IMG/VR virus record: IMGVR_UViG_3300015214_000028
Span: 1-64,000 of that record
Length of the DNA: 64,000 nt
Direction: 5' to 3' (one strand)
From: a virus
Lineage: Duplodnaviria > Heunggongvirae > Uroviricota > Caudoviricetes
Each line of letters opens with the position of its first letter. Within the stretch, counting starts at the first letter, position 1. Of the stretch, positions 7,066 through 26,167 are shown one piece after another. The notes under the pieces are model-generated. The model was not told the DNA's origin. It did no database searches and saw only the letters and a program-made list of their open reading frames with translations. The translations under genes were made by a program, and so were the position numbers.

Positions 7066-7094
7066 AGTATAACACTGTCAATAAAAAATTTCAA
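7066..7094 (-). promoter_or_regulatory. sigma70-like promoter for terS/terL (-35 TTGAAA, 17-bp spacer, -10 TATACT) giving a leaderless or near-leaderless transcript
   Basis: Reverse complement reads TTGAAA ttttttattgacagtgt TATACT tcaaaat ATG. Confidence 0.5.
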
Positions 7095-7222: not shown

Positions 7223-7286
7223 TGTAAATTTTCTTAAAGTTGTACGCGGGGGAGGGCGGTGCGGCGGTGCCGATAGAGCGAGTCTA

Positions 7287-7322
7287 TCAACCGCCCATGC
7301 CCGATAGGGTGAGCCTATCGGG
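7287..7322. repeat. perfect 15-bp-stem inverted repeat (CCCATGCCCGATAGG gtgagc CCTATCGGGCATGGG) just downstream of the minus-strand two-gene operon
   Basis: Read directly. Preceded by a second palindrome GATAGAGCGAGTCTATC. Confidence 0.8.
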
Positions 7323-7337
7323 CATGGGTCTTGCCTG

Positions 7338-7634
7338 CTACACCTGGCGCGCAGGCGCGAAGTTCGCGAGGTTCAGCACGTCCAATCGATCATGTTCGGG
7401 CCGGGCAAGTGCATCGACCAAACGAGCGAGGAATTCCGTCGCGCTGATGGTAACGTGCCCGCCAGACACAGGAAAATCTACTTGCACGCTAACGCGCTCG
7501 ATCGCGCCTGCGCGCTCTACTGCGCGATTCAATTGCCTGACAAACGAGCGCGCAGCGATGAAGGTCATACCCTGCCCGAACGGGCGCGGCTGGCCTACGG
7601 GCTTTCCGGCCGCGAAGATGGTAATCTGTGTCAT
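7338..7634 (-). CDS. hypothetical protein (98 aa) in a ~60% GC patch
   Basis: Track ORF; follows the upstream ORF with a 5-nt gap. Confidence 0.45.
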   Translation of the reverse strand: MTQITIFAAGKPVGQPRPFGQGMTFIAARSFVRQLNRAVERAGAIERVSVQVDFPVSGGHVTISATEFLARLVDALARPEHDRLDVLNLANFAPARQV

Positions 7635-7639
7635 GCTGG

Positions 7640-7918
7640 TTACTCCATCGAATAATCGGCACAGTAGCGCAGCGCGCTAATGACCCGTTCCACAATCTTG
7701 GCCTCCCTGACTGCCTTTACCGCACCCGCATACTCGCCTGCGCTAGCATCCGTGGACATGCTCAGCAGGGTTTCTTCATGAAAGCGCACGTCGGACTCAG
7801 CCTTTGCTTGGGTAGAGTACAGAAGGTCTTCTACGCGCTGGCGCGCGGCGTTCAGTTCCTCATAAGCGACTTCACCCAGACCGAACATATGAGCTACGAA
7901 TGTGACAGTTGCCTTTTG
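7640..7918 (-). CDS. hypothetical protein (~93 aa; start ATG at 7918 with RBS GGAGGTAGG)
   Basis: The reverse complement of 7921-7935 gives GGTGGAGGTAGGAAA before the ATG. The track's longer 170-aa version runs back into AT-rich non-coding DNA. Confidence 0.45.
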   Translation of the reverse strand, partial: QKATVTFVAHMFGLGEVAYEELNAARQRVEDLLYSTQAKAESDVRFHEETLLSMSTDASAGEYAGAVKAVREAKIVERVISALRYCADYSME

Positions 7919-8357
7919 CATTTTCCTACCTCCACCCAATGCAGTGAAACCGGTCGGTTTCCTCGTTTGCTGCATCAGAGACTTAACTATAGCAAAGCAT
8001 TTTAACCCTGCAAAGCGGAAAATTGTAACAAATTGTAACTGTTGTTTTTTCACCACACGCGCCCGATGGGCACTCTTTCCCACTAATAACATTATACACG
8101 CTAGAAAAACCGTGTCAAGCAAAATATTTTTGCTCGTTCCGAAAATGAACATGTCTGATTTTGCCTAGTCTGTTTTACTGCCCTGGTCAAGCATTATTTT
8201 CTGCCTAGCATGTAACGATGTTATCGTCAAGACATATCGCGCCGAAAACACAAAACCTGGTAGCTGTCAAGTATTCCGCACTAAAATGCAAGGGTATTGC
8301 ATAGCATCTAAAAAGTATGCTAGACTATGGGTTATTGCATTAAATAGGCTATTCACC

Positions 8358-8741
8358 ATGCTAAAGAATCTTGACCTTGAAACCTTCTACCGTGCTGTAT
8401 CGCACTATTGCGAAGTTTTGCAGATTGATGAAAGTATGGTAGAATTCGAGTTTAGCAATCTTCGGCGCAATGCTAAATTATGGGGCGCTTGCATCAATGA
8501 CATTGATTGTGTTACAATCGAGATTGATAAAAGTTTGTCGCGCAAAAACACGCTAAAAACTCTAGCGCATGAGCTAGTGCATGCAAAACAGTTTTTAGAA
8601 GGTGAGCTAGACTGTATCGGGGATTATTGGATTTGGCACGGTGAAATTGTGTTAGAATCCTATGAGAATGAACCGCACGAAATAGAAGCTAACAGTCTCG
8701 AAAACGTGCTATACTCTAGTTTTATGGAAGCGAACCGATGA
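8358..8741 (+). CDS. HExxH zinc-metallopeptidase-like protein (ImmA/SprT-like; paralogue of 26173..26571)
   Basis: LAHELVHAKQF motif; ATG at 8358 in the track-ORF frame. Confidence 0.5.
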   Translation: MLKNLDLETFYRAVSHYCEVLQIDESMVEFEFSNLRRNAKLWGACINDIDCVTIEIDKSLSRKNTLKTLAHELVHAKQFLEGELDCIGDYWIWHGEIVLESYENEPHEIEANSLENVLYSSFMEANR

Positions 8742-9217
8742 AAATTGCAATTTTCGATCTGGACGAAACCGTTATTAATTCGTCGCATCGCACGCCGAAT
8801 AATCCCGATGGCACCCTTAACCTTGATGCTTACATTGCAAGGCATACACCGGAAAACGTGAGGAAAGACAAGGTTTTGCCGCTTGCCGAAACTATGCGCA
8901 GACTGTATAATATGGGCTGGCAGATTTTTGTTCTGACTGCTAGGGATATGAAACCTTGCGACTATGAATACCTCGCAAGGCATAATCTACCTTATCATCG
9001 CATTTTCTCGCGCGATCAAGCAAAGCCTGAACATTATAGGCTTTCCGATGGCGAATATAAAAAGCGCTGGATTCAAAAGCTGCTAAATCTTCGCCAATAC
9101 CGGAGCGCTTATGTTATAATGTTTGACGATAGCAGCAAGGTTAAATCTGCGCTGCGTCGATTCTTTCCGGTACTTTGCGCGCATAAGGTAAATGCGAAAA
9201 TCGGAACGGTTAAATAG
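8738..9217 (+). CDS. HAD-superfamily phosphatase (5'-deoxynucleotidase or PNK-phosphatase-like; resembles T5 dmp)
   Basis: N-terminal FDLDETV (DxDxT motif); 159 aa. Confidence 0.6.
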   Translation: MKIAIFDLDETVINSSHRTPNNPDGTLNLDAYIARHTPENVRKDKVLPLAETMRRLYNMGWQIFVLTARDMKPCDYEYLARHNLPYHRIFSRDQAKPEHYRLSDGEYKKRWIQKLLNLRQYRSAYVIMFDDSSKVKSALRRFFPVLCAHKVNAKIGTVK

Positions 9218-9283
9218 CACTACCGTTAAAACGTGCTATAATGGCTCTTCCTGATTGACGATAAACGAACTGAGGGAAACAAA

Positions 9284-10849
9284 ATGATCGAAGCTAAAAT
9301 TGCACTGCGCATTCGCGGCGCTTTCCGGTTGCGCAAACCCGAAAGCATTGATTCTGCTATTGCCGACGTTGCCGAGGAAATTGGCGCGGATGTTAACGCG
9401 GTTCGGGAAGTTTACAATACCGAACGTGCACGGTTGGACGCGGCACGGATCGAGCGGATTCGGAAGGCGGAAAGCAAACCCGTTTCGGGCGGCGCGTTGC
9501 GCCCGGATTATTCTGCGGAAGATTACCCTGGTCCAATCATCGTCACCGCCGCGCAAAATAACACGGAAGTGGCAGAAGCTTTCTGGGATAACCTTGTCGG
9601 GTATGCGTCCAGCATTGGGGCTAAAATCATTGTCGCACCGATTCTGTATAATAAATCGGCATGGAATCAGCCCGATGACATGACTGGACAAGATATTTAC
9701 TTTGACCCCAAGGTCAAACCCTATATGCGCGATGATCGGTTTACCGTTCACGGTGTAGCGGTATTGGCTAACGCTCATGTTTTGCCGACGTCCAAGAATC
9801 CGTTGTCGGGTTTTGAATCGGCCACGGGTGCTGGACAGTCTATCGTCATCCCGGCCAGTAAAATCTCTCTTAAAACGATGCCACGCCTTAAGGGTGAACC
9901 GCTGAAAATTGTTCAATCTACGGGCACGGTTACGGTATGCAACTATGTCCAGCGCAAGGCCGGAACGGTATCCGAGTTGGAGCACAATTACGGGTTTACC
10001 GTGATTGAATCCGGCGGAAAAGTTCGATCGGTAGAATGTATGAATCCTGATGCCGGCGGGTTTTTTGATTTTGACGGGGAGCATGTAAACGAACAAGGCA
10101 TTGAGTACCCTGATAACCCGGCTGCGCTGGTTTTTGGAGATATTCACGCCGAAAAGCTGCCGCTGGAACGGCTTAATGCAATCTCGGCACTAGCGCGAAA
10201 GGTCAATCCGTGCAATGTCATTTTCCACGATATTCTAGACTTTTCGAGTCGGAACCATCACAATCGGGAGTCTAGTCTCTTCCGCTTTGTGGCGGATTCT
10301 ACGGGCCAGTCAGTGGAAAGCGATATTGAAAAGGTCGCTAACGTGCTAGACTGTTTCCCAAGCTATGCTCCTATTGTGGTTGACTCCAACCATGACAGAG
10401 CGCTTGAACGTTGGCTGGATGAGGCAGATTATCGCGAGGACTCACAAAACGCGATTTTCTTTTTGGAATTGCAGCTTGCACGATACCGTGCGGCAAACTG
10501 TGGACAAGAGCCTATTAACCTGCTAAAATACGCTTTGACCAAGCGTTTCGGCAGGGATTTTAATGCTACTTTCCTGAAGCCTGATGAAAGCTGCAAGGTA
10601 GAAGGTATTGAATGCGGCAATCATGGCGACCGTGGCCCTAACGGCGCTAGGGGAAGTTTGCAAGCATTCCGGGCAATTGGCGAATCTATGGTGATCGGAC
10701 ACTCCCATAGTCCGGGCATTGCCGGCAAAGTGTATCAGGTCGGGGTTTCGGGCAGCCTTGAAATGGGGTACAATGTTGGACCGTCGTCTTGGGCGCATGC
10801 TCACTGTATCATTTTCGCCAATGGACAACGGCAAATGATTTTCGAGTAA
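9284..10849 (+). CDS. large protein with a C-terminal calcineurin-like (Mre11-type) metallophosphoesterase domain; resembles T5 pre-early A1
   Basis: Motifs VFGDIHAE, HDILD, DSNHD, ECGNHGDRG, VIGHSHSP; 521 aa. Confidence 0.55.
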   Translation: MIEAKIALRIRGAFRLRKPESIDSAIADVAEEIGADVNAVREVYNTERARLDAARIERIRKAESKPVSGGALRPDYSAEDYPGPIIVTAAQNNTEVAEAFWDNLVGYASSIGAKIIVAPILYNKSAWNQPDDMTGQDIYFDPKVKPYMRDDRFTVHGVAVLANAHVLPTSKNPLSGFESATGAGQSIVIPASKISLKTMPRLKGEPLKIVQSTGTVTVCNYVQRKAGTVSELEHNYGFTVIESGGKVRSVECMNPDAGGFFDFDGEHVNEQGIEYPDNPAALVFGDIHAEKLPLERLNAISALARKVNPCNVIFHDILDFSSRNHHNRESSLFRFVADSTGQSVESDIEKVANVLDCFPSYAPIVVDSNHDRALERWLDEADYREDSQNAIFFLELQLARYRAANCGQEPINLLKYALTKRFGRDFNATFLKPDESCKVEGIECGNHGDRGPNGARGSLQAFRAIGESMVIGHSHSPGIAGKVYQVGVSGSLEMGYNVGPSSWAHAHCIIFANGQRQMIFE

Positions 10850-10963
10850 AAGTGGAACGGGGTGATTGACTCATCCCAGTCACTAGGTTATACTTCTTTC
10901 ATCGGTTCAGCGAATAGCGCGACGTTGAACCGATACCCTAAACCGCGCTAAAAGGGCTTTATC

Positions 10964-11308
10964 ATGAGCAAAGAAAAAGTGGCAGCGTATTCAATCGAGC
11001 AAACTTCGGAACTGGTCGAGGCTTACAAAGCCGACCCGACTCAAGAGACTGTTGCGATTTTTGCGGAACGGTTCGGAAAATCTGCCCGGTCGGTTATCGC
11101 GAAGCTTACTCGGGAAGGCGTGTATATCAAAAAGACTTACACCAGCAAAACGGGTGAACCTGTTATCAAAAAGGATGACATTGCCGACAAGATCGGTGCG
11201 CTTGTCGGGCTGGCGGATTCCGAAGCTGATTCGCTTGCGAAAGCTAATAAATCCGCGCTGAAGAAAATTTATGCACGGCTTACCGGATCGGGCGCGGATT
11301 CCGAATAA
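10964..11308 (+). CDS. small HTH-motif protein (A2-like); member of a paralogous family
   Basis: Motif ARSVIAKLTREGVYIKK is shared with 15894..16238, 37469..37828 and the three repeats in 40736..41472. Confidence 0.5.
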   Translation: MSKEKVAAYSIEQTSELVEAYKADPTQETVAIFAERFGKSARSVIAKLTREGVYIKKTYTSKTGEPVIKKDDIADKIGALVGLADSEADSLAKANKSALKKIYARLTGSGADSE

Positions 11309-11364
11309 CCTGTAGCATACCGGGGTGCATCCAGCACCCCGGTTAATCAAAAGGTAACGCTAAA

Positions 11365-11673
11365 ATGTCTCGAAAATACCAAAGCTTTAGATATCGAACA
11401 GCTATGTGCAGCATTGCTCAGGCTAATGGTGCGGTAGCTTGTCGCAAGGGTTTGACCGTAGCAATCGTTCCATGCCTTGAAGGCGCTTTCAATCCGAAGT
11501 TCTATAAGGTAGCAGTTGCTCACTGTAGTGACTCGGATGAATTTGACTATAGTCGCGGCGTGATTATTGCAGAAAATCGGCTTTGTTGCGACAACTTTAT
11601 CACGTTGCAAAACCCTTTTCCCGGTTCACCGCCACAACGCGCAGCGGAGTATTTTGCCTCGATGCTAGTCTAG
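11365..11673 (+). CDS. hypothetical protein (102 aa)
   Basis: Track ORF with RBS AAAGG; followed by a terminator. Confidence 0.4.
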   Translation: MSRKYQSFRYRTAMCSIAQANGAVACRKGLTVAIVPCLEGAFNPKFYKVAVAHCSDSDEFDYSRGVIIAENRLCCDNFITLQNPFPGSPPQRAAEYFASMLV

Positions 11674-11684
11674 GTTCCTAGCGT

Positions 11685-11716
11685 AAGCCCCAATTCTAAT
11701 TGGGGCTTTTCTTTTG
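11685..11716 (+). terminator. rho-independent terminator
   Basis: AAGCCCCAA ttctaa TTGGGGCTT followed by TTCTTTTG. Confidence 0.7.
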
Positions 11717-11751
11717 CCCGGTACTGTAAATGCTTCGCATTCGCCAGATGA

Positions 11752-11983
11752 AAATGATTCTCATTTGCTCGCGCCGATTTTACACCTGGTTGGCCAGCAC
11801 GTCAAGCCCGGGTACTCTAAACGAGAATGATTCTCATTCAGGCGCCGATTTTACACTACACTAGAACACTTGTCAAGCCGTGTTACAATTAACACGGGGT
11901 GTAGCATATGGGGCAAACTGGTACGCTTTTTGCTTTCGTTAAACGCGAACGATTCTCATTCTCAAACGCGAACGATTCTCATT
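11752..11983. repeat. four operator-like palindromes (A)AATGATTCTCATT(T/C), two followed by GCGCCGATTTTACAC
   Basis: Copies at about 11752-11766, 11825-11839, 11948-11960 and 11971-11983. Confidence 0.75.
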
Positions 11984-12020
11984 CTCATTTCTTTTTGCCA
12001 AAATACCCGAAGGGTATTTT

Positions 12021-12140
12021 GCGCCCGCGAGAGTGAGAAATCAACGCCAAATTTTCCGTGTCGCCGCGCCCGCGCGAGTGAGAAATCAATGACAAAATTC
12101 CGCGCCCGCGCGAGTGCGAGATCAACGTGAAATTTTACAT
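12021..12140. repeat. three tandem ~38-bp direct repeats (GCGCCCGCG(C)GAGTG(A/C)GA(A/G)ATCAA(C/T)G..AAATTTT), iteron-like
   Basis: Read directly. The track ORFs 11870..12130 and 12127..12318 are most likely non-coding repeat DNA. Confidence 0.75.
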
Positions 12141-12184
12141 GCTAGAGTGCAAAGTCAAGTCGAGTTTTCCCCCGCTAAAGCAAC

Positions 12185-12610
12185 ATAACCCGGGGTGCAG
12201 CGATCATAGCAATCATAGCAATCCTAGCAATCGCGGCAACCACAGCAACCACAGCAAGCCTCACACTAAAGCAGCCCTAGCAACTTCCCGTAGCCCTCAC
12301 AGTAGCCCAAGCCGCTAAAGACTTTACGCCCCGGGCTACTCTATGAGCCCTCTAAGCCCGCTAAAACCTCTGAGCCCCGGGTTAAAAAATAGCCCGGGGT
12401 GTAGCGATTGATTCAATGCCCCAAATCTAAACAGTAACCCGGGGCTCAGCGATTTTAGTAAGCTAAAAAATATCCCAGACTAAAGAAGTAGCCCGGGGCT
12501 CAACGATTTTAGCAAGCTAAATGCACTCAAAGAACTAAAAAGTAACCCGGGGTTCAGCAATTGAACCGGCTTCAGCAATTGAACCGATCTTTGAGCCCCG
12601 GGTTACTTTG
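12185..12610. repeat. cluster of at least eight copies, in both orientations, of a 17-25-bp element GTAACCCGGGG(C/T)(T/G)(C/T)AGC(G/A)ATT, plus tandem 9-mers (TAGCAATC / CAACCACAG) at 12196-12262
   Basis: Copies near 12187, 12337, 12369, 12390, 12434, 12488, 12542 and 12591. Confidence 0.85.
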
Positions 12611-12960
12611 TGAAGGTGACTAAAAATTATTTTTGGCCAAAAAATTGAATTTTAAATTGTATTACGCAGGCGTTTTTTGCCGACTTTATATGGTAATCAA
12701 TAAATTAATTGATTTAAAACTCAGTAATTGAAAAAGAACTCTTAGCTTAAAAAAGGGGGGGATAAATTGTCCAGTAACAACAACGGAGCAAAAAATTTCA
12801 GCGCTAAATTTCAAAAAATAACGAAAATTTTTTTAAAAATAGTCGAAAAAAGCTGAAAAAACTTTGAAATTTGAATTAATTAAACTAAAAAGGCAGTAGT
12901 CTAATTTGAAATAAGTTAATTTAAAAAAGAGACTAGTCTGAAAAATACCCCCTGTCTAAT
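12611..12960. other. extremely AT-rich non-coding tract (candidate DNA-unwinding element or spacer) with no ORF above 60 aa
   Basis: Long A/T runs, e.g. aaaaattatttttggccaaaaaattgaattttaaattg. Confidence 0.6.
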
Positions 12961-12961
12961 A

Positions 12962-13090
12962 AGTAACCCGGGGCTCAAAATCTGAAAAAATGCTAAAAAT
13001 TTATTAATTCTTTTGTAATCTAATTAACCCGGGGCTCAGAGGTTGAAAAGGTTTTAATAGCTAAAGAAGTAACCCGGGGCTCAGCAATTC
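12962..13090. repeat. three more copies of the GTAACCCGGGGCTCA element
   Basis: Near 12962, 13026 and 13069. Confidence 0.85.
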
Positions 13091-13272
13091 AATAAACTAA
13101 GAAATCCCCTAAAATTGGGAGACCGGGGTTACAGTGGTTAGCTTATTAGTTGTATACCGTTTAATACGTTTAGTAATGAAAAAACGCGTAGTATACGTCA
13201 AAAGAAAAAGTCAAGCAAATTTTTAGTTATTACATTTTAAATATGTATAGGTTCCCCCAAGGTTAGATTGCC

Positions 13273-13390
13273 AGGAAAATCGCCTTAATATCGCAAGAAG
13301 AATTTTTTGCGCGGGCTCTTTAATAGCACCGGCGGGGGGACCCCCCGGCTATTAGCCCTCGCAAAATTCTTTTGCTCTAGCGATTTTCCT
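13273..13390. repeat. ~115-bp imperfect palindrome (AGGAAAATCGC ... GCGATTTTCCT) centred on a G7/C6 hairpin CCGGCGGGGGGACCCCCCGGC
   Basis: Read directly. Lies between convergent gene blocks. Confidence 0.75.
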
Positions 13391-13460
13391 TAATTCTGTC
13401 GAATTTCGTCAATCTATCCTTTATTATACCACATTTTTTTTTTAATTTCAACTCGATTTT

Positions 13461-14042
13461 TCATTCTGGCTTAAAATCCCAGTCTGTAGGGCTTAAAATC
13501 ATTTTAGGATGCCTGATATCCGGATGATAGATCCACATCTCTAGTAACATGTATCTCAACATCTTAGGAAGTTTATCGAAGAGTGTTCCAGTCTTTTCTA
13601 GTGAACCGTACTTTTTAGGGTCTGGCATTTGTGATCTATATTGTTCTAGCTTGTCTTTAGGCGGGATTGGGTATGGCATTAGTAGCCAAGTTAGCGACTC
13701 TGTTAGGAAAGTTGCTAGCTGGTTATTTTTTACCCAATCGTTATATTTGAAGTCGTAGTAGCTCATAAATAGCGGAACACCAGAAGAAAGTTCTGGTTTG
13801 TAAGTCATAGCAGGCTTTAGTAATTTTGAGCGTGGAATTACTGCGACTTGTTCTACTAGACTGATTAGGTTTTCTGGTGCTTTAGAATACCACTCTTCTG
13901 CGTTTGGGGTGTCTAGTGGTACGGTTTTTACTACCGATTCTAGCCAAGGAAAGAATTTTGGATCTTCCTTTACTTTCTTTTGTAGATCTTTATCTAGCTC
14001 TAGGAGCTTTATGTTGCCTTGTACGAAATATTCAATTTTCAT
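13461..14042 (-). CDS. hypothetical protein (193 aa)
   Basis: Track ORF. Confidence 0.5.
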   Translation of the reverse strand: MKIEYFVQGNIKLLELDKDLQKKVKEDPKFFPWLESVVKTVPLDTPNAEEWYSKAPENLISLVEQVAVIPRSKLLKPAMTYKPELSSGVPLFMSYYDFKYNDWVKNNQLATFLTESLTWLLMPYPIPPKDKLEQYRSQMPDPKKYGSLEKTGTLFDKLPKMLRYMLLEMWIYHPDIRHPKMILSPTDWDFKPE

Positions 14043-14074
14043 TTTAGTTCCTTAGGGGTGTAGCTGGTGTAGCG

Positions 14075-14181
14075 AGTAACCCGGGGTGTAGCGGGTTTAG
14101 CGATTGCAGTGGTTGCTTGAGTGTAACCCGGGGCTCAGCAATAGTCTGGGGTGTAGCAAGTGCTACACCCCGGGTTACAGT
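14075..14181. repeat. three more CCCGGGG-element copies; the last sits in a perfect hairpin GGGGTGTAGC aagt GCTACACCCC
   Basis: Read directly; upstream of the minus-strand gene 13461..14042. Confidence 0.8.
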
Positions 14182-14828
14182 TAGCAATTAACAATTTCCC
14201 ACCCAAAGTTATCGTCAGTGTAGCCTCTAGGATTTGATACTACTCTAGTGTTATTTATAGTGTAATCACACTTAAAGTGGGTGTGTCCATGAATCCAAAG
14301 CTTTGGCTCATGGTCTAGATAGGGGCTATACGGATTAAAGATATCAGTATAGAAAGCTTTGCTTAGAGGAGCTGAACGATACTCTGGTGCTACAGAAAGA
14401 ATACTAGGAGCATGATGAGTGATAAACACGTCAGCATTAGAAGTGTTTAGAAACTCTAGATCCTTTTGGAATTCTTCATTCCATTTTAGCTTTTTAATGT
14501 ACCTAAAATCATTCATGCCTTCTTTAGCTACTAGATAGGCCATAGGGTTACTAAGGTCTGTCCAAAGAGTAGCACAAGCAAATCTTACTCCTTTAAACTC
14601 AAAGATTTCTCTATTCTTTATTAGTGGGTGGTACTCATCATACTTACGACCATAGTACTCATGATTACCAGCTACATAAAGAATTGGCCCATCAAACTCT
14701 AGCGGGAGCCAAGGATTGCTTAGTGAGCAAATATCCCCCGCGAGCACGCAAATATCCGCCGGAGGCGGAAGCTTGCGCATTGGGGTAAATTCGGTGTGCA
14801 GATCTGATGCGTATGTAATTGTTAGCAT
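14181..14828 (-). CDS. calcineurin-like metallophosphoesterase (Ser/Thr-phosphatase-like)
   Basis: Motifs DLHTEF, LAGDICS, VAGNHEYYG, FITHHAP, IHGHTHF. Confidence 0.65.
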   Translation of the reverse strand: MLTITYASDLHTEFTPMRKLPPPADICVLAGDICSLSNPWLPLEFDGPILYVAGNHEYYGRKYDEYHPLIKNREIFEFKGVRFACATLWTDLSNPMAYLVAKEGMNDFRYIKKLKWNEEFQKDLEFLNTSNADVFITHHAPSILSVAPEYRSAPLSKAFYTDIFNPYSPYLDHEPKLWIHGHTHFKCDYTINNTRVVSNPRGYTDDNFGWEIVNC

Positions 14829-15714: not shown

Positions 15715-15901
15715 TTTTTACCTCCAACTCTTCTATCTTTTTTAGACATACCTCAATTGCTTGAGCAGCATTATTAGCATGCTCTGCTAGTGCTTGAATA
15801 GCTTTTCCATGGTCTAGAATACACTCACTTTGTTGACTAGTAAGTTTGGAAAAGGCGTCTAGTACACTGTGTACTTCTTCTTTTAGTTTTTTGTTAAACA
15901 T
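15683..15901 (-). CDS. hypothetical coiled-coil protein (72 aa)
   Basis: Track ORF. Confidence 0.35.
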   Translation of the reverse strand: MFNKKLKEEVHSVLDAFSKLTSQQSECILDHGKAIQALAEHANNAAQAIEVCLKKIEELEVKIETISKSTSS

Positions 15902-16238
15902 TAACTACCTTAAGGGACTCAATAACTTCAGGATCAATGGCTTTTAGCAAGTTCCTTAAAGTTTGTTTTGGTGCTTTCTCTAACCCTTCTAGATCTGCTG
16001 AAATCAGGGCTAGAGAGTTAGCGATCAGTTCTACGTATTCATCTTTACTGGTGGGGATTTCTCCAGTTTTAGTAGTATACTTTGGTTTTTTGTAAATTCC
16101 TTCCCTAGTAAGTTTTGCAGCTACTTGTCTAATGGTTCTGTCCCATTTTTTAGCAAGTAGTTCCACAGTTCTAGGGTAGGGATTCTCTGTGTAAAGCTTT
16201 ATATAGTCTAGTGTTTCTTCGTCTGAATATCGTTGCAT
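15894..16238 (-). CDS. HTH-motif family protein (paralogue of 10964..11308)
   Basis: VAAKLTREGIYKKPKYTTKTGE closely matches VIAKLTREGVYIKKTYTSKTGE. Confidence 0.5.
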   Translation of the reverse strand: MQRYSDEETLDYIKLYTENPYPRTVELLAKKWDRTIRQVAAKLTREGIYKKPKYTTKTGEIPTSKDEYVELIANSLALISADLEGLEKAPKQTLRNLLKAIDPEVIESLKVVNV

Positions 16239-22472: not shown

Positions 22473-22654
22473 TTTATAGCAAGCAGTTCCTTATTGATGC
22501 CTACCTTTGGCGCTTCAAAGGTCTTGATACTAAAATTCTAGAAGAGAATGCTAATACCTACTATGACAAAGTAGGCAAAGATAAGTTTCGAACTGCTGCT
22601 AGCCTTGATGCTACTTACCTAAAGGAATACAAAAATGCGTGTAAAGGTACTTAA
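22469..22654 (+). CDS. hypothetical protein (61 aa)
   Basis: Track ORF. Confidence 0.35.
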   Translation: MIYSKQFLIDAYLWRFKGLDTKILEENANTYYDKVGKDKFRTAASLDATYLKEYKNACKGT

Positions 22655-25736: not shown

Positions 25737-26075
25737 AATTTAGAGTATACTACCCCAACGGATGGAAAGGAACTACACCTCCCCTTCTTAGTAGGGAAAA
25801 CTCTAAATCTTCTGGGGTCTTGGCCAGACTTTAGAATAATCGACTGTGCGATGAGAGGCTTTAATCTCTCGGGGTACGGCAGTACAGGAACCGTAACCTG
25901 CTATAATAATGATTCCTTTCACTTTTAGGAGCTTATTACTAAGTCTCCTTTTTCAAGATAACTAGACGGACTGTGCTGCCCATAGCGGCACGTGTTAACA
26001 AGTTCGGTGGCGTCTGGCAACCTGCAAAAACTGTATATGCCAGTATACAGGAATGTATCTAGTTGTCTTGAAAAA

Positions 26076-26167
26076 GGAGAGATCCCATAATCGGTATTGG
26101 AGCGGATTGCTAATCCGTCGGCCTGCTAAAAACAGACTTGTGGGTTCGAGTCCCACTCTCTCCACCA
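26076..26167 (+). tRNA. tRNA-Ser(GCT), type II with a long variable arm
   Basis: GGAGAGA/TCTCTCC acceptor; loop TTGCTAA; T arm GTGGG-TTCGAGT-CCCAC; encoded CCA. Confidence 0.7.

Follow-up and report, generated by a model that had tools for sequence, protein, structure and literature searches.

A long palindrome in a metagenomic phage may be the hairpin core of a promoter-hairpin-tail cassette kept by T5-like phages

What is a palindrome of more than a hundred base pairs (bp) doing at the edge of a gene-free stretch, between two blocks of genes that face one another, in the genome of a tailed phage? The question arises at positions 13273-13390 of a 64,000-nucleotide (nt) stretch of viral DNA, positions 1 to 64,000 of the IMG/VR record IMGVR_UViG_3300015214_000028, which we call the window throughout. 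An earlier note, made from the letters of this DNA alone, had suggested that the palindrome could be a bidirectional terminator, or else a recombination or nicking site. It is not a canonical terminator. We propose that it is the hairpin core of a promoter-hairpin-tail cassette kept by T5-like phages (Demerecviridae and relatives), giving a transcribed, structured RNA module, and we consider the arguments for and against this proposal to be roughly in balance.

The palindrome is real, and its stability lies far above chance. Its 118 bp, with arms at 13273-13311 and 13360-13390 as the earlier note had quoted them, fold around the core CCGGCGGGGGGACCCCCCGGC (13329-13349) into a single unbranched hairpin of 118 nt with 46 predicted pairs. 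The claim of a palindrome of ~115 bp thus stands (z about -5 to -7), and that of near-perfection does not, given several bulges, internal loops and indels; the centre, described as G7/C6, is in fact G6/C6. Ungapped self-complementarity is only 38/118, because the indels shift the register. A long hairpin is possible on either strand, as had been anticipated: the RNA fold has a z of -5.1 on the plus strand (-57.7 kcal/mol) and of -5.9 on the minus strand (-58.8 kcal/mol), with 0/200 dinucleotide shuffles as good in either case, and a fold with DNA parameters of a 171-nt stretch reaches -43.6 kcal/mol (z -7.5). When the whole 64-kilobase (kb) window was folded in sliding segments of 140 nt (n=6387, mean -33.1, sd 8.0), the palindrome, at -60.5 kcal/mol, came about 9th among non-overlapping regions, and most of the regions that fold more stably have a GC content of 0.54-0.69. 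The core occurs once within the window, and outer arms of 12 nt (13259-13270 and 13410-13421) carry the symmetry outward, to about 163 bp.

A promoter points into this hairpin. By its match to the sigma-70 consensus it scores 11/12 with the TG of an extended -10 (13451-13423), and it is directed leftward into the palindrome; six sites of at least 11/12 are present in the window, counting both strands, and an extended -10 only at this one. Its -35 lies 10 nt past the stop of a gene for a 193-amino-acid protein and the hairpin 32 nt after the promoter, so placed that transcription predicted to start near 13416 would enter the hairpin at 13390, ~26 nt later. The predicted RNA from 13422 to 13230 folds at -74.9 kcal/mol (z -6.7), with the leader pairing with the tail and closing the 5' end. 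No open reading frame (ORF) of at least 43 amino acids fits in it, and a search for small ORFs gave nothing credible. Readings of the element as a 6S-RNA-like or a tRNA-like molecule were tried and rejected: it has no large central bubble, and no covariance-model or ARAGORN match.

Relatives of the window element itself are few. Among 50,697 phage records, megablast and blastn found no match to 12300-14100. An 86.9-kb ENA contig carries the same sequence, as do shorter contigs of four further samples; over 11000-14200 these six contigs (five samples in all) show 100% identity and therefore provide no covariation information. The 193-amino-acid protein has one homologue among 5.8 billion proteins, at 88% identity, which led us to a 1.4-kb contig (L012), and it has no relatives in IMG/VR. 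L012 carries the only diverged copy of the window element. In it the gene end, promoter, hairpin and a 28-nt tail are ~93-95% identical to the window, after which similarity collapses, and the promoter is identical except for 2 spacer bases. The changes within the hairpin restore pairing: a T gained by one arm, together with a G>A in the other, replaces an apical bulge with a T-A pair; an A·G mismatch is mended by a G>T; and one base is lost from each arm in the AAAAGAA/TTCTTCTT segment. As a consequence of these arm changes the L012 hairpin is more stable than that of the window, folding at -67.4 kcal/mol (z -8.3). The neighbouring phosphoesterase gave one further close relative, on a contig that stops before the palindrome, and in another contig (L014) a leftward promoter and a 59-nt hairpin, a partial cassette, are kept though the neighbouring genes lie on the opposite strand.

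An exact scan of IMG/VR for the G6/C6 core found no match, and a gapped search for the outer arms in JGI metagenomes yielded nothing but chance palindromes and a single unrelated repeat element. One JGI contig (Ga0209092_10165716, L018) carries at 11-142 a 132-nt nested palindrome of AGGAAAATCGCCGAGGTA repeats, folding at -82.6 kcal/mol; AGGAAAATCGCCGAGGTA is the same outer-arm sequence as in the window palindrome, L018 is otherwise unrelated, and the likeness is probably coincidental.

Is the same arrangement present elsewhere among T5-like phages? We took the cassette to consist of a near-consensus extended -10 promoter, on the strand of the early genes and immediately past the first of them, then a long unbranched hairpin, and then a tail with a G-run and an AT-rich segment. 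Such a promoter was found in the window, T5, KpGranit, PR1, Stitch, GEC_vB_N5, saus132, Kpn13-P1 and GSW6 (Table 1). A hairpin that is unbranched, starts ~25-35 nt after the -10 and beats its shuffles gave z values of -5.9 to -6.7 in the window and of only -2.7 in KpGranit. The T5-like cassettes lie on the same strand and in the same position as that of the window, right after the first early gene, and have in common with it the extended -10, a leader of ~25-35 nt, an unbranched hairpin of ~100-150 nt and the G-run/AT-rich tail, as well as the strings ATAGATT and GGGGGAnCYTAT..TTTAAAA; more fully, TATAATAA..ATAGATT recurs in the leader and CCTTGGGGGAACCTATAC..TTTAAAAT in the tail. The window cassette differs from the others in that its hairpin sequence is unrelated, its apex is GC-rich and its -35 is TTGAAA. 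Beyond the promoter consensus this likeness is short and was found by eye, and the argument for the family as a whole rests on position, structure and short common motifs.

In T5, KpGranit and PR1, the hairpin starts 403-624 bp past the annotated end of the terminal repeat. With the Stitch cassette as query, blastn returned 335 records, only 34 of them full-length; most are limited to nt 2-88, which hold promoter and leader, or to nt 204-248, which hold the tail, and we therefore conclude that the flanks are conserved and the hairpin interior replaced. Across Markadamsvirinae and Sugarlandvirus-like phages (L066 and L068-L073, namely Stitch, GEC_vB_N5, DT571/2, saus132, AKFV33, Kpn13-P1 and GSW6) the interior is unrelated even between close relatives, and, GSW6 excepted, each version sampled still gives a long hairpin. 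The cassettes of GEC_vB_N5 and DT571/2 have upstream of them a homing or GIY-YIG endonuclease gene, and not a homologue of T5.018.

The tail motif, a G-run and then an AT-rich segment 12-30 nt past the hairpin, is matched once per sequence, at homologous positions, in the window, L012, T5 and PR1, and variants of it are found in Stitch, Kpn13-P1, GEC_vB_N5, DT571/2 and saus132; we drew up the pattern afterwards, from the very sequences in which it is matched. A scan of IMG/VR recovered the T5 group, yet 20 of the 31 matches were non-T5 contigs, some of them resembling ribosome-binding sites (TGGGGGAACTTATG), and the motif alone is therefore not diagnostic. The cassette appears to be undescribed in the searchable literature, older subscription literature being outside our scope: hairpin and promoter are annotated in none of three T5 GenBank records, and neither the Davison preprint nor the other descriptions of the injection stop region that our literature searches found mention them.

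Is it the RNA or the DNA whose shape is kept? Eight distinct T5-type hairpin sequences were aligned and scored against the T5 structure, and 98.6% of cells are paired, versus 31-44% with the partners slid. Three pairs changed on both sides (U-A/C-G, A-U/U-A and A-U/G-C) and are compensatory; the four changes seen on one side only all allow a G-U pair on the promoter-sense strand; and one pair is broken in six sequences. The promoter-sense strand is also the one that folds better in the window, L012, T5 and PR1. The conservation of the promoter, and of the leader and tail that would be transcribed with the hairpin, points the same way. We lean, by a little, towards a role at the level of RNA.

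Several observations weigh against our proposal. The promoter is a consensus match only; comparative evidence on the window element comes from a single relative, L012; and three phages whose A1 proteins are 40-50% identical to that of the window (L026, L028 and L030) are without a clean cassette, two of them (L026 and L028) carrying ordinary short terminators after the first early gene. The variation within the T5 group amounts essentially to two haplotypes, so that the three compensatory pairs may represent few evolutionary events, and the KpGranit hairpin folds better on the opposite strand. Total G-U counts of 8 versus 9 mean that strand bias across the lineages is not decisive. Rfam 15, including 6S RNA and phage RNAs, gave no match to the element, whether with the gathering threshold or with E values as high as 10. 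No clear terminator delimits a discrete small RNA, the first weak candidate (13124-13103) not being conserved in L012. Finally, the loose criterion of a promoter with a hairpin of at least 30 bp already fits roughly 0-20% of promoter-like sites, the share varying with the locus, and so high a background makes it unusable alone.

Where does the cassette sit? By its genes, the window belongs to a distant T5-like phage, one that is known from metagenomes only. It encodes an A1-type DNA transfer protein (phrog_1745, E 4e-147), an A2-like DNA-binding protein (phrog_1725), a T5-type dNMPase, a portal, a protease-capsid fusion, T5-type small and large terminase subunits, a T5 nicking endonuclease and 15 tRNA genes, and a phrog_415 match together with PF26880, PF26823 and PF26848 on called genes supports T5-like membership. 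The late genes lie on the minus strand, the last of them being the small terminase at 7094. A plus-strand block of pre-early type (dNMPase, A1 and A2-like) ends at 11673; then come ~1.8 kb without genes and, from 13461, minus-strand genes of early type. The palindrome lies at the right edge of this gap, between a plus-strand and a minus-strand block, as the earlier note had placed it. Between 11674 and 13460 we found no credible ORF, only short ones of 20-86 amino acids with TTG or GTG starts, none with a family match. As an aside on the A2-like genes, phrog_1725 is matched by two genes of the window, one in the pre-early block (10964-11308, plus strand) and one among the early genes (15894-16238, minus strand), and in L026 and L028 the first early gene is itself A2-like (a weak match to Pfam Phage_T5_A2).

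In T5, the GenBank records place the injection stop signal and the left terminal-repeat end in a gene-free region between the plus-strand pre-early genes and the minus-strand T5.018. The gene-free region of the window (11.7-13.46 kb) is colinear in its features with Repeat Region 3 of T5. Four copies of AATGAGAATC(A/G)TT lie on the minus strand, where 0.35 would be expected by chance, and the 13-mer AATGAGAATCATT is common to the window and T5 although their A1 proteins are only about 39% identical; we regard the repeat as a candidate conserved protein-binding site for a pause in DNA entry. Contig ends from three independent assemblies fall at 12022/12024, 12044 and 12055, within GCGC-rich direct repeats. 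The minus strand has a PuPu|GCGC site at 12024/12025, and T5 has its major nick at the matching point. The PuPu|GCGC site is a candidate T5-type nick and may be the equivalent of the T5 major nick; coverage is known to drop at T5-type nicks (PMC13250531). In a 52%-related phage (L015, L016) contigs also break, ~310-335 bp past the last pre-early gene, which repeats could explain.

A second repeat family, TAACCCGGGGCTCA, has 13 copies within 2 mismatches (0.25 expected) in both orientations, and is likely a binding site for a phage protein. Its copies bracket a putative terminal repeat and flank the first early gene. This terminal repeat, which would be collapsed in the present assembly, is placed at about 7254-12812 (~5.6 kb) because 7254-7296 and 12745-12812 align with the repeat ends of relatives, and the palindrome would then lie ~460 bp outside its right end (about 12812). 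The most stable 140-nt fold of the window, at 7241-7380 (-72.9 kcal/mol, GC 0.66, with a perfect 16-bp hairpin), is found at the putative left end, and a perfect 12/12 sigma-70 consensus (TTGACA-16-TATAAT, at 8118 on the minus strand) lies within the putative repeat, inside the minus-strand ORF 7640-8152. Between the gene for the 193-amino-acid protein and the phosphoesterase gene, 14051-14190 folds at -63.0 kcal/mol and holds inverted copies of a TAACCCGGGG repeat.

Taken as a whole, the region is a new and distant member of the known T5-type boundary region. With the T5 injection stop region it has in common a large gene-free region between pre-early and early genes, the presence of A1, A2 and dmp, and the order of its elements: AATGAGAATCATT-type repeats, a GCGC nick-type site, short multi-copy repeats, the terminal-repeat-end motif, more repeats, the promoter-hairpin cassette and the first early gene. 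Unlike in T5, the pre-early operon of the window is inverted, the repeat sequences differ except for the 13-mer, and DnaA boxes are wanting (with Davison's criterion, TTWTNCACA, there are none in 11.6-13.5 kb and 4 in the whole window, no more than chance); nor does the palindrome fall within the part annotated as the stop signal in T5, or within Repeat Region 3 as Davison delimits it, with its end at 10409.

Table 1. Features of the window around the palindrome, and the corresponding cassettes of other T5-like phages (position and strand as recorded for each)
Feature	Position	Strand	Details
A1-type DNA transfer protein, T5-like marker	9284..10849	+	phrog_1745; 37-39% identity to A1 of isolated T5-like phages
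Match to left genome end of T5, KpGranit and PR1	7254..7296	+	~26-nt G-rich stretch, then (T/G)AGTCT..AACCGCC
Canonical intrinsic terminator of plus-strand pre-early-type operon	11685..11708	+	10-bp stem, then TTCTTTT
AATGAGAATC(A/G)TT repeats, n=4	11753..11983	-	13-mer is core of T5 injection-stop-region repeats (families D2, I14)
Three GCGC-rich direct repeats, ~44 bp each	12021..12130		Contigs of three independent assemblies end inside
TAACCCGGGGCTCA repeat family	12186..13132; further copies 7138, 7206, 14124 (14078-14170)	both	Positional analogue of T5 direct repeat D
Match to conserved right end of T5, Stitch, KpGranit and PR1 terminal repeat	12745..12812	+	Motif alignment
3' tail: outer arm CAAUCUAACCUU, then G-run/AT-rich motif CCTTGGGGGAACCTATACATATTTAAAAT	13235..13272	-	L012 similarity stops here
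Long imperfect palindrome, 118-nt unbranched hairpin, 46 pairs	13273..13390	-	Folding; pairing-restoring changes in L012
Initial transcribed leader (predicted): 5-bp hairpin AAUUC/GAAUU and 5' outer arm AAGGAUAGAUUG	13391..13422	-	ATAGATT common with Stitch and KpGranit leaders
Sigma-70-type promoter, extended -10	13423..13451	-	TTGAAA 13451-13446, 17-nt spacer, TG 13431-13430, TATAAT 13428-13423
First early-side gene, 193 amino acids	13461..14042	-	No family match; stop 10 nt before promoter -35
Cassette of T5 (AY587007)	about 10561-10799		TTGACA-17-TATCAT; hairpin 147 nt (10740-10594), 52 pairs; z -6.9
Cassette of Providencia PR1			TTGACG-17-TATAAT; hairpin 102 nt; z -6.8
Cassette of Klebsiella KpGranit			12/12 promoter; hairpin 97 nt, weaker; z -2.7
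Cassette of Stitch			TTGACA-18-TGTTATAAT; long hairpin of differing sequence
Cassettes of GEC_vB_N5, saus132 and Kpn13-P1			TTGACA-17/18-TG(T/G)TATAAT; hairpins 103-130 nt, sequences differ; z -3.3 to -5.0 (mononucleotide shuffles)
Cassette of DT571/2			Near-consensus promoter below the script's cut-off, by eye; long hairpin by eye
Cassette of GSW6			TTGACA-17-TGTTATAAT; minimum free energy fold 18 bp / 44 nt only, sequence resembles saus132; z -3.6 (mononucleotide shuffles)

What else could the palindrome be? The main rival is an element that acts as DNA, in concatemer processing or in duplication of the terminal repeat, where a DNA hairpin would extrude or fold back with the help of transcription from the adjacent promoter. 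Its distance from the repeat, 403-624 bp past the annotated end in the three phages above and ~460 bp past the putative end in the window, would suit such a role, as would the DNA fold (z -7.5), overall G-U counts without strand bias, and a structure that is kept while its sequence is replaced, which fits a structure-specific DNA enzyme. A pure DNA hairpin, on the other hand, needs no near-consensus promoter and no conserved transcribed leader or tail; the one-sided changes of the T5 group, which all allow G-U pairs on the promoter-sense strand, would leave A·C mismatches in the opposite strand; a cruciform would be costly to extrude from arms that are imperfect and carry indels; and hairpin-ended intermediates are not known from T5. 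The PuPu|GCGC nick motif of T5 type was not found inside the palindrome, a candidate lying 1.25 kb to its left. A parallel is the concatemer junction of T7, where transcription has been proposed to help in the same manner, and which combines the promoter phiOR and a pause site with a palindrome from which a hairpin end arises; Chung, Nardone and Hinkle reportedly described there, in 1990, the promoter phiOR together with a hairpin-ended intermediate. As in the window, whose terminal repeat is putative, promoter and palindrome are found in unique DNA that adjoins a direct terminal repeat, position alone being compared; unlike in the window, they lie on the other side of the repeat, serve the phage's own polymerase and have experimental support. 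We know of nothing comparable to T7 junction processing that has been shown for T5-like phages, and a DNA-level role seems to us unlikely, albeit worth keeping in mind.

The remaining explanations are less probable still. That the palindrome terminates transcription in one or both directions, or insulates the pre-early from the early block, is suggested by its place in a convergent gap, by a hairpin that is very stable on both strands, and by 3' arms that both end in GCGAUUUUCCU, with the plus strand continuing into UUAAUU. Rho-independent bidirectional terminators too are stable hairpins between convergent gene blocks. They differ from the palindrome in that it has no U-tract, a promoter upstream and, at 46 bp, a stem much longer than those of terminators. 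A terminator scan made no call here, no U-tract (at least 5 U in 8) following the stem on either the plus strand, which reads TAATTCTG, or the minus strand, which reads GGCAATCT. The plus-strand operon moreover already ends at its own terminator, 1.6 kb before the palindrome, and on the minus strand the promoter stands between the gene stop (13461) and the hairpin. These points speak against the bidirectional terminator of the earlier note, and so do other phages: KpGranit has a separate terminator-like hairpin with a T-run before its promoter (read from the sequence, and not called by a tool), L014 keeps promoter and hairpin with its neighbouring genes reversed, and L026 and L028 have ordinary short terminators at that position. 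A terminator or insulator is therefore, in our estimation, improbable. Could the cassette be a replication origin primed by transcription? A strong promoter, a structured RNA, a G-run able to form a stable rG-dC hybrid and an AT-rich unwinding element make up an R-loop type of layout known from ColE1 RNA II and T4 oriF, and past the hairpin the window, L012, T5, Stitch, PR1, Kpn13-P1 and GEC_vB_N5 all keep a run of G5-6 followed by an AT-rich TATA..TTTAAAA tract. This tail motif is short and resembles ribosome-binding sites elsewhere, and the Davison preprint puts the origins of T5 near the genome centre, which leaves an origin at this locus a very slim prospect. [quoted passage not shown]

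We return, then, to the transcribed hairpin. Host sigma-70 RNA polymerase would start at the extended -10 promoter (13451-13423, minus strand) and would transcribe the palindrome ~26 nt after the start. The nascent RNA would fold into a rod of ~118 nt (~160 nt if the outer arms are counted); the rod would be closed near its 5' end and followed by the conserved G-run/AT-rich tail. Selection would appear to keep the duplex rod and not its sequence, in which case the element is most likely a sequence-independent double-stranded RNA module - perhaps a processing, stability or insulating element, perhaps a small structured RNA. The module would head a non-coding leftward transcript running toward the terminal repeat, against the plus-strand genes for dNMPase, A1 and the A2-like protein. 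By analogy with T5, the cassette would lie on DNA that enters the cell only at second-step transfer, and could thus help to insulate or shut off pre-early expression, or yield a stable small RNA.

Long hairpins cut by RNase III-type processing offer one comparison for such a module: they are known in phage transcripts from the early R sites of T7, the sib element of lambda and the N leader, and HK022 put lies just downstream of its promoter. Like these, the cassette has a long imperfect duplex just downstream of a strong host-type promoter, with structure kept and sequence varying, and its duplex, predicted from folding (46 bp with loops), exceeds ~20 bp. Unlike them, it is followed on its strand by at least 5 kb without a gene, and it has no sequence or covariance-model similarity to them. 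Two other structured elements of the window lie outside this region. One, of ~137 nt, is located between tRNA-Ile and tRNA-Ser (25944-26080; -63.7 kcal/mol, z -7.5, a 23-bp closing stem) and has no Rfam match at the gathering threshold; the other is an intergenic hairpin of 125 nt after a weak promoter-like site (22477-22601), modest against shuffles (z -3.2).

We could go further and speculate - tentatively, for we find it rather doubtful - that the cassette is an undescribed non-coding RNA gene across the T5-like family, with conserved promoter, leader and tail, and with a rod whose sequence changes fast between close relatives. If this were true, the gene would lie, by analogy with T5, on the first DNA in at second-step transfer; would its product act as a double-stranded-RNA decoy, as an anti-defence RNA, or as a switch that shuts off the pre-early genes, antisense into the terminal repeat?

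Whichever of these roles it may play, the cassette recurs from T5 to the phage of the window, a distant metagenomic lineage that keeps the whole boundary architecture of T5. The mechanism of second-step transfer is poorly understood (PMC13250531). For work on the pausing and resumption of DNA entry in T5-like phages, on their switch from pre-early to early expression and on how their long terminal repeats are regenerated, the cassette offers a concrete target at this boundary, one that can be deleted in T5 itself.

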